NCBI GenBank assembly: GCA_041641305.1
Contig: JBEPYN010000002.1
Coordinates: 512,001 to 576,000, forward strand
Length of the DNA: 64,000 nucleotides
Source of the DNA: Nitrososphaerota archaeon
GTDB taxonomy: Archaea > Thermoproteota > Nitrososphaeria_A > Caldarchaeales > Caldarchaeaceae
Direction of reading: 5' to 3'
Positions 2,700-9,440 of this stretch are shown here, one piece after another. The notes beneath the pieces were generated by a model. It had not been told where the DNA came from and did not search any database. It worked only from the letters and a program-made list of their open reading frames with translations. Both the position numbers and the translations under genes were made by a program. Every line of letters begins with the position of its first letter. The first letter of the stretch is position 1.

Positions 2700-3020
2700 A
2701 CGGAAAGCTGCTGAAACCTCATACTTTAGCGTCTTAAAGCCAGAACATTTCTCAGAATAGTCATATTCTTCGTCAGGTTTATAAGAGATGCATAGGGTAT
2801 TGTCCTCAACCCATAGGTCGATAGGTATGGTTCTTGGTCAGTGGCAACAGTCTCGGCCTATAGCGCGAATACACCATAGTAATTGGGAAGGTGGTGTAAA
2901 TGAGGTTCTACTGCGATGTCCATAGGAAGAGGGATGACACAGGCTACAGGGTAACATACACAACGGATGGCGAAGACTTTAGACATGTTGATTCACCGGT
3001 GGAGATACCGGCAGGCCTGG
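2700..3020. mobile_element. Decayed, internally deleted and truncated copy of the 5824-7349 element
   Basis: ~2733-2823 aligns with ~6044-6135 (IDLWVEDN.LC.SYKPDEEYD on the minus strand). The ORF at 2900 encodes MRFYCDVHRKRDDTGYRVTYTTDGEDFRHVDSPVEIP, nearly identical to the N-terminus of 6332..7180, then diverges and stops at 3058. Confidence 0.85.
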
Positions 3021-3064
3021 CTGCGGAAAAACACGCTTATATAGGGTTTGGGTGTTGAGTATGT

Positions 3065-5512: not shown

Positions 5513-5797
5513 TTAGAGGAATTGCTCGGGCTTTCTCTCATCTCTGGCCCTAACCTTGAGGACGCCGTAGTGGATGGCGCAGCTGATGCAGAGGTTTTTT
5601 ACTACGATGTTTTCGGCGAGATAGGCACCCGCCTGCTTCAGCTCACGGGCCAAGTCACCGCGGACAAGAGAAACACGCCGCGTTACACGCTGGACCTTGC
5701 TTCTCGGCACATAGGCTCCGCAGTTGTCGCACTGAACAGTCGGCTCCTTCCCCTTAGCGCCTTTCGACCTGCCACGGCTCTTACGCTTGAACGGCAT
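5513..5797 (-). CDS. rps26e: 30S ribosomal protein S26e
   Basis: MPFKRKSRGRSK..VQCDNCGAYVPRSK..CISCAIH..VRAR. Confidence 0.96.
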   Translation of the reverse strand: MPFKRKSRGRSKGAKGKEPTVQCDNCGAYVPRSKVQRVTRRVSLVRGDLARELKQAGAYLAENIVVKNLCISCAIHYGVLKVRARDERKPEQFL

Positions 5798-5820
5798 TCC
5801 ACTCAATCACTACTATGTCT

Positions 5821-5830
5821 GTTATATAAA
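5821..5830 (-). promoter_or_regulatory. TATA box of rps26e (TTTATATAAC), coinciding with the left junction of the element
   Basis: Archaeal TATA consensus ~25 nt upstream of the ATG at 5797. Confidence 0.6.
5824..5830 (+). repeat. ATATAAA direct repeat, left copy
   Basis: ctgtt-ATATAAA-gatcg. Confidence 0.55.
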
Positions 5831-5903
5831 GATCGTCGAAGGTTAAACCAATTTTCTCCAAAACCTTCGCCAATAAATCCCTTGGAAAACAATTCGAGGA
5901 CAG

Positions 5904-6164
5904 CTATTTAGGTAGGTTGTTTTTCTTTTTTCTTGGTTTTGTTCTTATTTTTATTGCGTGGAATGGGCATTTTTGAAATTGTTCAAGAATGTGTCCTTTC
6001 TGGCATTTTGAGCAGAAGCCTATACCCTCCTCATAATTCGGGGTTTTAAAGGTAGGAATATTCTCATAGTGGTCATATTCCTCGTCAGGTTTATAAGACA
6101 TGCATAGGATATTGTCCTCAACCCATAGGTCTATAAATAATCGATTTTCCCTCATCCACGCCAT
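5904..6164 (-). CDS. Small putative zinc-binding accessory protein of the element
   Basis: CSKC..CPFH..IRTKPR motif; a homologous reading frame is conserved in the second copy. Confidence 0.6.
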   Translation of the reverse strand: MAWMRENRLFIDLWVEDNILCMSYKPDEEYDHYENIPTFKTPNYEEGIGFCSKCQKGHILEQFQKCPFHAIKIRTKPRKKKNNLPK

Positions 6165-6331
6165 TATTCAAGTCGTTATTAGACAGGTATGCATGGTGGC
6201 TTGGTATCCTAAGCCTAAGCCCAGCCGTAGTATAATACCTATTTTTTTGGTAATGGCTTTAAACCAGTTTTTAGGTTATGGGGGACATGGCCACTACCTA
6301 TGGCACGAATACACCAAAGAAAGTGGTGTAG

Positions 6332-7180
6332 ATGAGGTTCTACGCTGATGTTCATCGGAAGAGGGATGACACAGGCTATCGGATAACCTATACAACTGAT
6401 GGTGAAGACTTTAGACATGTTGATTCTCCGTCGGAGATACCGGTAGAAGCTGGAGACAAAGTATACGTAGACACAATACCGATAATACATACAGATGGTT
6501 TCATAGAGCTTCTTAGAAGAGGTGCTGAGGTTTACTATCTGAGGAGACTAACCATGATTGAGGCTGTGAGGCAGAAGATGGGGATAAAATCCAAGTCCGC
6601 GAGGACAGATATCAAGGCTTTGATGGCTGTTGATGATAAGTGGTTCCGTAGAGTGGATGAGAATTTCTTGGTGATGCGACAGATGATTTCGGCGTTTAGA
6701 AGTTTGGAGAGAACTATGCAGAGGCTGGAGAACCAGCTCAAGGCGGCTTCATCTGCTACCGAGGAGAGCTTGAGGAGAATGGTAAAACAAGTAGAGATAG
6801 AGAAAGAGGTCTTAGCCAAACGGATTTCAGAGGAGGCGGCGAAGAGGTTCCCAGTCTTCGTAAAGGTTGTGGAAGAGCTAGGGATAATGGGAGAGAACCA
6901 TGTATTGGCTTGTGAAGCTTTGGCGGAGCTGCTAACCTACGTCGACTTCAGCAAATCCTTTAGACAAGTGCGAGGATACCTACGGCTCTACAGGAAACGT
7001 TCAAAAAACCAGACGTATAACCACGAGACACGCCATGCGCTAACAAGGCTCACAATGGCAACAACAAGAAATACACCAAACGCCCATAAACAAGAAGACA
7101 TACTGATGAAGATATGGCTGACAATCAGACAGGAAACCCAAGAGAGGCTGGCAGGCATACCGGCCCAACAACAGGGATAA
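6332..7180 (+). CDS. Divergent IS110-family / TasR-like protein (RuvC-like domain, coiled coil, Tnp/Nop-like C-terminus)
   Basis: FYADVH (D6), VYVDT (D47), KSARTDIKAL (cf. KTDxxDA), coiled coil, then ELGI..LAELL..DFSKSFRQVRGYLRL (cf. IPGIG..EIGD..RF..K.LASYAGL). Confidence 0.7.
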   Translation: MRFYADVHRKRDDTGYRITYTTDGEDFRHVDSPSEIPVEAGDKVYVDTIPIIHTDGFIELLRRGAEVYYLRRLTMIEAVRQKMGIKSKSARTDIKALMAVDDKWFRRVDENFLVMRQMISAFRSLERTMQRLENQLKAASSATEESLRRMVKQVEIEKEVLAKRISEEAAKRFPVFVKVVEELGIMGENHVLACEALAELLTYVDFSKSFRQVRGYLRLYRKRSKNQTYNHETRHALTRLTMATTRNTPNAHKQEDILMKIWLTIRQETQERLAGIPAQQQG

Positions 7181-7307
7181 AACCCAGAAGCCGGTATGTC
7201 CTGTTATATAGCGAGCTGACTCTTTCGCCAGCTATGTCTAGTTTATAAACGGCCGGCTTCTTTCATGGGTTTCCTAGGTGTTGTTGCTGGTTGGTTGCCT
7301 GCCAGCC
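7146..7307 (+). ncRNA. Putative guide RNA (bridge/seek/tigRNA-like long stem-loop with a symmetric dual-guide internal loop)
   Basis: Nested helices ggctggcaggca/tgcctgccagcc, caacaaca/tgttgttg, aaaccca/tgggttt, gaagccgg/ccggcttc and agctg/cagct; the internal loop is two copies of ATGTC-N9-ARCG. Confidence 0.7.
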
Positions 7308-7342
7308 AACCACCCCCTTATTTTTTCCCTTAATTTATGTCC

Positions 7343-7349
7343 ATATAAA
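7343..7349 (+). repeat. ATATAAA direct repeat, right copy
   Basis: tgtcc-ATATAAA-ctaac. Confidence 0.55.
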
Positions 7350-7520
7350 CTAACAGGGAAAACCACAACTAGGTATCTATTTCTTTCATTTTCCTCTTAC
7401 GAATGCTCAAATAAGCAATTCATGGTTTAAAGCTATGTAATAAACCAACTAGACATATCATAGGTTGATAAGTTAATATACAGGGTTGGCTAAAGTGGGC
7501 GTCGGGCAGCCGAGTAACAA

Positions 7521-9440
7521 ATGGTGGCCGGTCTGAAAAAACTTTCATGCTACAACAAACCCCTGAACTTTCCCGAGAATAATTTTGACCACGAATGGTG
7601 GAAAAAAATTTTCAACGAGTACTACCTTGTTACAGATGGGGACGTTGTCTGCAACCAAGAATTGACCAAATACGAGGTCGACCTCATAGTCAAGCTTCTC
7701 GACCTCGATAAAACCGATGCGGTGCTAGACCTTTGCTGCGGCAACGGCAGACACGCAATAGAGCTCGCTAGAAGAGGTTACAGGGATATACATGGGCTCG
7801 ACTACTCCAGGTTTCTGTTAAACGTTGCCAGAAATTCAGCTAGACAAGAGGGGCTGAAAATAGACTTCAGATGGGGGGATGCAAGGAGCTTGCCCTTCGC
7901 GGATAATTCATTCGATGCAGTTATTTTAATGGGAAACAGCTTCGGATACTTCGCTGAAATAGATGATGACCTGAGAGTCCTAAGAGAAGTGAGACGTGTC
8001 CTAAGACCTTATGGCAGAATCCTCATCGACGTTGTAGATAGAGAACAGTTCTTAAAACATTTGGAGCCAATCAGCAGTGAAAAAAATGGAGATGTTCAAA
8101 TAATTAGACTGCGGAGGGTCATCGGTCGAAACAGATTGGTGACGCGTGAAATTGTTATCAGGGAAAACACGGAGGTATTAACCGACCATGTCTATGGCGT
8201 TAGACTATACAGCTTCTCAGAACTCAAATGCATGCTGGAGCAGGCAGAGTTCGCAAATGTGACTCTCAAAGCCAGTATCTCATACAATCCTGAAGGAAAG
8301 GACCCTGGAATGCTCAAAACTAGGATGGTCGTTACAGCATTATCTTCGAAGGAGAACATCGTTACAGCCCACAAGCCGCTCATAGCGGTGCTCATCGGTG
8401 ATCCAAGTAGACGCAATCCTGTTAAGCCTGGTGCAGTATTAGATGAAGATGATGTCTATGCGGTTAACGAGTTAAAATCAGCTCTCATAGGTATAAGAAA
8501 GTATCAATTCTGTTTCCTCGATAACCACGACTCATTTCTAGAATACTTGAAGGCAAACAAGAACTCAATTCATATCGTCCTCAACTTATGTGATGACGGA
8601 TTTCACAACGACCCGCATATGGAGGGGCATGTTCCAGCTTTGTTAGAGATGCTAGGGCTGCGGTATACTGGTGCTGGGCCAAGATGCCTATTCCTATGCT
8701 ATGACAAAGCAGCCGTCAATGCGATCGCAGAATCAATGAGCATCCCTGTACCAGAGTATGTGCTAATTAACAACCAGGATGAACTGAACATAATACCTAG
8801 ACGAATTTATCCCGCTATAGTGAAGCCTAACTTCGCAGATAACAGCTGGGGAATAACTGCGAAAAGTATTGTTCGGGACAGAACCGAGTTGGAATCTGCA
8901 ATTCATCAATTGAAGATTGAATGGGGCTACCATGGCCCAGTATTGGTGCAACACTATGTTGAAGGAAAAGATCTGACAACCGCTTTAATAGGAAATCCGC
9001 CAGATTTCATTGTGCTACCGATTCTGACAGAAGATTATTCTTGTTTACCTGACGGGCTTCCGAGAATTCTGACCTATGATGCAAAGTGGGTTCCAGACTC
9101 TCCATATGGTTGTGTACAGTCGGTACCGGCTACACTTAATTCCGATATAAGACACAGGCTAGTCAACTGGAGCAAAGAGCTGTTCATAAGGCTGGAGTGC
9201 AGAGATTATGCGAGATTTGATTGGAGATTGGGATATGATGGTACTCCATGGCTGTTAGAGGCTAACCCAAATCCTGGATGGGTCTGGGATGGTCATCTCA
9301 GAAAGGCATGCAATTATATGGGATGGAGTTACAAGAAGATGTTTCAAGCCATCATTGAGGCGACTGAGAAACGTTATAGAACGGCCAACTCCAAACAACA
9401 CATTAGTATTCATCCTCAAAAGATTGAAGCCATACACTGA
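7521..9440 (+). CDS. Class I SAM methyltransferase fused to a D-Ala-D-Ala-ligase-like ATP-grasp domain
   Basis: VLDLCCGNGRH and GDARSLPF motifs; YTGAGP..DK, AIVKP, VQHYVEG, YARFDWR and LEANPNPG motifs. Confidence 0.85.
   Translation: MVAGLKKLSCYNKPLNFPENNFDHEWWKKIFNEYYLVTDGDVVCNQELTKYEVDLIVKLLDLDKTDAVLDLCCGNGRHAIELARRGYRDIHGLDYSRFLLNVARNSARQEGLKIDFRWGDARSLPFADNSFDAVILMGNSFGYFAEIDDDLRVLREVRRVLRPYGRILIDVVDREQFLKHLEPISSEKNGDVQIIRLRRVIGRNRLVTREIVIRENTEVLTDHVYGVRLYSFSELKCMLEQAEFANVTLKASISYNPEGKDPGMLKTRMVVTALSSKENIVTAHKPLIAVLIGDPSRRNPVKPGAVLDEDDVYAVNELKSALIGIRKYQFCFLDNHDSFLEYLKANKNSIHIVLNLCDDGFHNDPHMEGHVPALLEMLGLRYTGAGPRCLFLCYDKAAVNAIAESMSIPVPEYVLINNQDELNIIPRRIYPAIVKPNFADNSWGITAKSIVRDRTELESAIHQLKIEWGYHGPVLVQHYVEGKDLTTALIGNPPDFIVLPILTEDYSCLPDGLPRILTYDAKWVPDSPYGCVQSVPATLNSDIRHRLVNWSKELFIRLECRDYARFDWRLGYDGTPWLLEANPNPGWVWDGHLRKACNYMGWSYKKMFQAIIEATEKRYRTANSKQHISIHPQKIEAIH

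Follow-up and report, generated by a model that had tools for sequence, protein, structure and literature searches.

The window, a 64,000-nt stretch of a Nitrososphaerota contig, contains an inserted element whose two 9-nt RNA guides spell out, on opposite strands, the very target that the insertion has split. Related copies show the same relationship: their guides change with their flanks and match the empty alleles of sister species. We propose that the element is probably a selfish RNA-guided homing nuclease system, inserted by repair and often at TATA boxes, and not a bridge recombinase.

Architecture of the element in the rps26e promoter

The element sits in the promoter of the host gene rps26e (ribosomal protein S26e; 5513..5797, minus strand; Pfam PF01283). 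In 10 congeneric genomes, serA is divergent from rps26e at a distance of ~80-110 nt, and the host is a Caldarchaeum-like archaeon, the closest named homologs of the window belonging to Ca. Caldarchaeum subterraneum, HR01, and HR02. The left target half with the duplicated core occupies 5819..5830 (plus strand, as for all features below unless stated), the core being 5824-5830. On the minus strand, 5823-5830 forms a TATA-box-like octamer 25 nt upstream of rps26e; its position and a matching AT-rich box in relatives suggest that it serves this gene as TATA box. The right core copy (7343-7349) and right target half span 7343..7352, after which the ancestral rps26e promoter continues. Between the duplicated cores lie 1,512 nt of inserted DNA (5831..7342), lower in GC than the host genes flanking it on the left.

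A preliminary description, made from the sequence itself, had outlined this arrangement, and all of its coordinates proved exact, base for base. Guide A (7201..7209) repeats 5819-5827 exactly, and guide B (7239..7247) gives 7344-7352 in reverse complement; their predicted pairing partners are the bottom strand at the left half-site for A and the top strand at the right half-site for B. Both junctions share the 7-nt core, and excision of 1,519 nt restores a 15-nt site that A and B cover with a 3-nt overlap.

At its left end the element carries 80 nt of captured host DNA (5833..5911), the 5' region of a gene that we take from our own reading of its translation to be guaB-like (G000 C2:63156 onward, 94% identity). 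This piece stops at an AT-rich box and is probably a former left flank. It is followed by an 86-aa ORF with two Cys pairs (5904..6164, minus strand; zinc-finger-like, no Pfam match), a passenger found at the left end of several copies and missing from others. A different ORF of 134 aa, also without Pfam match, occupies the left end of C. subterraneum copies (L124:3405-3809). The gene for a 282-aa RuvC - coiled coil - Nop/Tnp protein (6332..7180) overlaps the predicted guide RNA (7146..7307). Downstream, a C- then T-rich tail common to all copies, possibly an archaeal terminator, leads into a variable right end (7308..7342).

Two further features of the window lie close by. A degenerate second copy just upstream of proS (2717-3058) lacks the hairpin; its left-end sequence is 83% identical to 6029-6135, the first 39 codons of its gene are 87% identical, and C. 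subterraneum has two small genes at this position, one of them DUF2283. To the right, a low-GC gene (7521-9440) encodes a 639-aa protein in which a SAM methyltransferase is joined to an ATP-grasp domain resembling D-Ala-D-Ala ligase; the gene is absent between rps26e and serA in ten congeners. We considered it as cargo of the element and rejected this, as the gene lies right of the target and is a separate insertion.

The predicted guide RNA

The predicted guide RNA is a long conserved hairpin with one symmetric internal loop and an inner hairpin at 7214-7233. As the preliminary description had it, the hairpin runs over the end of the ORF: the stem closes at 7146-7157/7296-7307 and covers the last 35 nt of the gene. 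It folds at -83.8 kcal/mol (z = -5.67 against shuffles), and an alignment of 22 homologs shows compensatory change in 16 of 38 consensus pairs, with both guides unpaired in the consensus. A homologous hairpin lies 3' of the gene in the copies examined, each with a single guide unit per gene and neither a tandem array nor a second variable loop. The variable part of the RNA consists of two 9-nt segments. These had been described as set between fixed ATGTC and ARCG boxes; the family consensus is instead UG(U/A)C-N9-RACR. A subfamily (L012, L087, L092, L109) has other guide boxes, GC-N9-WTAC, equally symmetric. An Rfam search of the guide RNA region returned no match, a sigma-70 scan was uninformative, the host being an archaeon, and a single raw RNA run contained no reads from the organism itself and two from a relative.

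The guides evolve quickly. Two copies that are 3% apart in the ORF differ in 7 of 18 guide bases, each fitting its own site, and guide turnover in close copies is ~ten times faster than that of the gene. The homing-nuclease reading leaves this turnover unexplained, which counts against it.

Guides match flanks and empty sites

Given the local dinucleotide composition, the chance of the match in the window is about 0.013 on the left, about 0.010 on the right, and about 1e-4 for both in the right orientation; the two guide 9-mers are scarce, with just 7 and 4 occurrences across the 1.66-Mb genome. The preliminary description had called for a comparison of guides and flanks among homologs, and this revealed that the guides do follow each copy's flanks. 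Among 35 curated copies, 13 have a perfect right (antisense) match 110-1000 nt downstream, five have a perfect left (sense) match 0.9-2.2 kb upstream, and four have both. Permutation of the guides among the same copies gave null means of 0.18 right, 0.19 left, and 0 both, and a wrong-orientation control gave 0, 1, and 0. That 22 of the 35 copies have no perfect right match counts against a homing nuclease. A second run on 12 distant copies, partly overlapping the first, found three right matches and one left match against 0 and 0.2 expected. The left side is taken by either guide, as expected of a symmetric dimer.

The guides also spell sites that sister species retain intact. Five insertions of C. 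subterraneum have orthologous empty sites in the genome of the window, which agree with the joined guides at 15/15, 15/16, 15/16, 15/16, and 14/16 positions; a sixth, in a coding sequence, agrees at only 10/16. Conversely, two insertions in the genome of the window are empty in C. subterraneum and match the joined guides at 16/16 and 15/15 positions. These empty sites measure 15-16 bp, with half-sites overlapping by 2 or 3 bp. Two copies have a guide that fits the empty allele at 9/9 positions and the filled junction at 8/9. One strain whose left flank has been replaced by a tRNA-Glu end retains the old guide, as does a copy with a decayed left junction. Because guides fit the empty allele better and survive loss of the flank, they describe the intact target and were not copied from the junctions. 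At one orthologous site in two species, a one-base difference in guide A is mirrored in the right flanks. The tRNA-Glu case (GCA_038736885.1, L081:3362-3480), in which the other strain's element, guides unchanged, is joined on its left to the 3' end of the tRNA gene (C2:613482 in the genome of the window), reflects either rearrangement or misassembly.

For the rps26e promoter, the empty allele that had been predicted was not found in its exact form, all same-species contigs and assemblies examined being filled, which clonal descent would explain as well; the homologous promoter site was found in C. subterraneum. The reconstructed empty site of the window copy agrees with it at 16/26 positions in register (P 4e-4), and right of the core 9/14 bases match in register versus 3/14 for the filled allele. 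A search of metagenome contigs with the species-specific rps26e leader gave no match. Sequencing reads yielded the rps26e-serA joint of another species only, plus internal deletions of related copies, and among viral sequences the 17-nt empty site found six matches, by a rough estimate about as many as chance would give in that collection.

At several sites the target is an AT-rich box that lies 15-25 nt ahead of the start of a gene (rps26e, tRNA-Thr, argS-like, and others). TATA boxes are not the only targets, as some distant copies (L018:1365; L089, about 306 nt right of guide A) have a G/C-richer guide whose match is a tRNA-Thr(CGT)-like anticodon segment.

Junctions and ends

Among nine elements with both ends known, 3-7 central bases of the target are duplicated, around positions 6-11. 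In TasR, cleavage falls 5' of the base that pairs with guide position 5 (PMC12045711); applied to a 15-16-bp site, this rule predicts 3' overhangs that span positions 6-10 or 6-11. Of 14 right junctions, the targets of five being read from the guides only, nine start at position 6 or 7, and of 10 left junctions six finish at 11 or 12. Matches overrun the guides by 1.6 nt on average versus 0.4-0.7 expected, an excess for which P does not exceed 5e-4 at match rates of 0.4 or less.

The inner ends are unconserved, the distance from guide A to the right site ranging from 123 to 913 nt, and they carry old flanks: two copies hold a duplicated gatD 5' piece that starts at its AT-rich promoter box, 1-2 bases from the present guides. 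Donor ends of known source show mostly short filler without clear microhomology (suggestive in one case, L040, and absent in three), and such filler counts against the homing-nuclease reading. No intact target within one mismatch was found for any of the four full copies in the genome of the window. There is also no 9-nt match to a circle joint inside the element that could serve as a donor guide, and no circle joint was seen in the contigs of three runs, a form of the data that drops rare variants. One contig skips 772 nt of the gene (window 6367 to 7140) and keeps the hairpin, a non-autonomous deletion derivative.

Distribution and islands at guide-defined sites

A profile search of 300 genomes from the phylum found the family in 22, every one of them within Caldarchaeales. 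One genome has 33 matches, many of them partial, and C. subterraneum has five close copies, each at a site of its own. No relatives were found in viral contigs, and no partner gene is common to all copies.

Two sister copies lie at the ends of much larger inserts. The first, of 14,662 nt (G000 C1:439858-454540, L141; 14.7 kb), carries a type III Cas10/Csm cassette and a Cas_APE2256 gene. The second, a conjugative-type insert of 116,667 nt (G000 C2:346790-463476, L135-L140), encodes HerA/TrwB-like ATPases, ParB, primase, helicases, and ribonucleotide reductase. Guide half-sites bound both inserts, and C. subterraneum is empty at both sites. The larger island is largely missing from the relatives tested; for part of it C. 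subterraneum does have a relative, in a neighbourhood that lacks the gene. The 134-aa ORF seen in C. subterraneum copies also occurs near its left boundary. The islands may have been brought by the element or may have landed inside it. The guide-defined site at which two species differ by one guide base, mirrored in the flank, is occupied in them by different islands of about 24 kb and 16 kb (L035/L144/L145 vs G000 C1:515550-531650).

The protein

Pfam and single-sequence PDB searches with the 282-aa protein, like a single-protein scan of genome contigs, gave no match; only fold and deep profile succeeded. The model (pLDDT 90.9) aligns with TasR (PDB: 9MTY) at Z 15.4 and rmsd 3.8 (243 aligned residues, over residues 1-273) and with ISCro4 at Z 12.7. 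Foldseek puts ISCro4, IS621, and TasR together (ISCro4/IS621 E 1.7e-7 to 1e-4, TM about 0.6), with E-values slightly better for the IS110 proteins than for TasR, and the deeper profile gives E 1e-8 for TasR 9MTY versus E 2e-4 for IS621. Taken together, the modelled fold and the profile place the protein closest to TasR.

The profile shows a deletion across the serine loop of IS621 (S241) and no conserved Ser. The RuvC acidic positions are D6, D47, A90 (normally D), and D93, leaving the DEDD tetrad incomplete. D6, D47, and D93 are invariant, and none of the best 120 homologs showing the motif has Asp at the third position; many distant relatives do, and these too lack the serine loop. The loss of this residue, compared with four acidic residues in TasR, counts against nuclease activity; with the serine loop missing as well, the protein cannot act like IS621.

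Proposed mechanism and alternatives

The element had been suggested to be either a recombinase or a homing nuclease. A nuclease fits the junctions; a recombinase is unlikely without a serine loop, a third acidic residue, a donor guide, or fixed ends. As the TasR fold suggests, a dimer of the 282-aa protein would bind the pseudo-symmetric RNA loop. Guides A and B would then pair with opposite strands of the 15-16-bp target, overlapping by 2-3 bp at its AT-rich core; that these are their targets is established by covariation and empty alleles. Following the TasR rule and the duplications at the junctions, the RuvC sites would cut five bases in from the 5' end of each guide, leaving 5-6-nt 3' overhangs. 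Host repair could then copy or join the element, plus variable neighbouring DNA, into the break. Insertion splits the target, no intact one being left for the genome's own copies, and would bar the element from cutting itself, while duplication of the core would let the promoter box survive. Changed guides would move the element to a new site, from which it could home into empty alleles.

Two results from TIGR systems stand against this proposal. Those stem-loop TasR proteins that have been tried to date act as dead repressors (bioRxiv 10.64898/2026.09.09.750476), and TasR has been assayed on abutting or gapped half-sites (PMC12045711), not on overlapping ones such as those observed here.

An alternative, which we regard as possible although rather unlikely, is a serine-free RNA-guided integrase, in which RuvC performs strand transfer with a DNA 3'-OH, in the way of DDE transposases, and joins donor ends into a site named by the guides with a short duplication. 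It would account for the many new sites per genome, as with the five close copies of C. subterraneum, for the staggered duplications, and for a 116.7-kb island in a guide-defined site of a genome where searches limited to PF00589 and PF00239 found no tyrosine or serine recombinase domain. The slight lean of the Foldseek E-values to IS110 agrees with it, as does a direct-transfer route reported for an IS110 (bioRxiv 10.1101/2025.10.25.684509). However, the donor ends are neither conserved nor guide-matched, the duplication varies from 3 to 7 nt, and the filler bases at the junctions resemble repair.

We find it improbable that the protein is catalytically dead and serves only to select the site for an enzyme of the host or of an island, or to repress the promoter as dead TasR proteins of the stem-loop kind do. 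The Asp-to-Ala change throughout the subfamily and the frequency of TATA boxes among targets are consistent with this, as is repression of transcription by dead TasR (bioRxiv 10.64898/2026.09.09.750476). It is countered by the invariance of the three remaining aspartates by Ala-bearing copies that have got to new guide-matched sites, and by the lack of a full-tetrad paralog in the genome of the window. Moreover, every copy's target is split, hence there is nothing to repress, and the copies have no partner gene in common.

That the element moves by other means and its guides are written afterwards from the new junctions is very improbable and largely refuted: fast guide turnover would be accounted for, but guides fit the empty allele where the junction has lost a base, and they persist beside both the tRNA-Glu flank and the decayed left junction. 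That the element is a canonical IS110/IS1111 bridge recombinase whose donor loop is hidden is scarcely credible; the fold is the same, and in its 9-nt guide and 2-nt core overlap the RNA is similar to the target loop of IS621, but the serine loop and the D102 equivalent, both essential in IS621, are missing, there is only one variable loop, the element holds no 9-nt match to a circle joint, and fixed ends are lacking. Chance matching of AT-rich 9-mers, a caveat of the preliminary description that the A/T ends of the guides would favour, is refuted by the permutation test with these same AT-rich guides and by seven matching empty alleles.

Beyond homing, we tentatively raise a two-part RNA-programmed integration that needs no serine, donor guide, or fixed ends, in which 18 actively rewritten guide bases would direct anything from 1.3 kb to a 117-kb conjugative-type island into a 15-16-bp site; we regard this as rather unlikely.

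Comparison with known systems

The arrangement is strongly supported by comparative evidence, and the element belongs within the IS110/TIGR superfamily. It falls outside IS110, lacking the serine, donor loop, and fixed ends, and outside TIGR as defined by array, boxes, and half-sites. With TIGR-TasR (Faure et al. 2025, PMC12045711, PDB: 9MTY; Xu et al. 2026, bioRxiv 10.64898/2026.09.09.750476, stem-loop tigRNA) it shares the RuvC - coiled coil - Nop fold without serine loop, two equivalent and interchangeable 9-nt spacers that read opposite strands from a stem-loop, a guide that may overlap the gene end, and junctions that fit the C-5 cut rule. It differs in having one guide unit rather than an array, boxes UG(U/A)C and RACR rather than CCA (box C) and UG (box D), half-sites overlapping by 2-3 bp (15-16 bp) rather than a non-overlapping 18 bp, and three acidic residues rather than four. 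Unlike TIGR-TasR, it resides on the chromosome in several copies, and its guides target the site of its own insertion.

The IS110/IS1111 elements IS621 and ISCro4 (PMC11208158; PDB: 8WT6, 9T56), with their bridge or seek RNA, have the same three-domain RuvC - coiled coil - Tnp fold and an internal RNA loop that spells the target on opposite strands with a short core overlap. The present element differs from them by the missing catalytic serine loop, D102 equivalent, and donor-binding loop, by the lack of fixed ends or terminal repeats, and by variable 3-7-nt duplications and captured flanks. The position of the RNA downstream of the gene is that of IS1111.

Homing endonuclease elements and TnpB/omegaRNA of IS200/IS605 interrupt the site of their own nuclease and spread or persist by break repair. 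The element likewise interrupts its recognition site and leaves no intact one, and it would spread or persist in a similar way. Unlike these systems, its specificity resides in two reprogrammed internal RNA guides and not in the protein or a flank-derived guide, and it has no intron, intein, or TnpA.

No published description of this family was found in the literature searched, of which our coverage is incomplete, and it seems to be a homing system new to the literature, guided by RNA and reprogrammed in nature. The TIGR papers state natural targets and spacer acquisition as unknown (PMC12045711; bioRxiv 10.64898/2026.09.09.750476), and the 2026 survey again lists natural TIGR targets as undetermined (bioRxiv 10.64898/2026.09.09.750476); the guide pairs with chromosomal targets and empty alleles described here would supply these missing targets together with a biological role. 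If cutting is confirmed, the element offers a 282-aa programmable nuclease from a hot-spring archaeon, and if it also drives insertion of the islands, a new route of large-scale gene transfer. Its place between TasR nucleases and IS110 recombinases makes the transition proposed between them testable; on the reading favoured here, it would work like TasR and live like a homing element.
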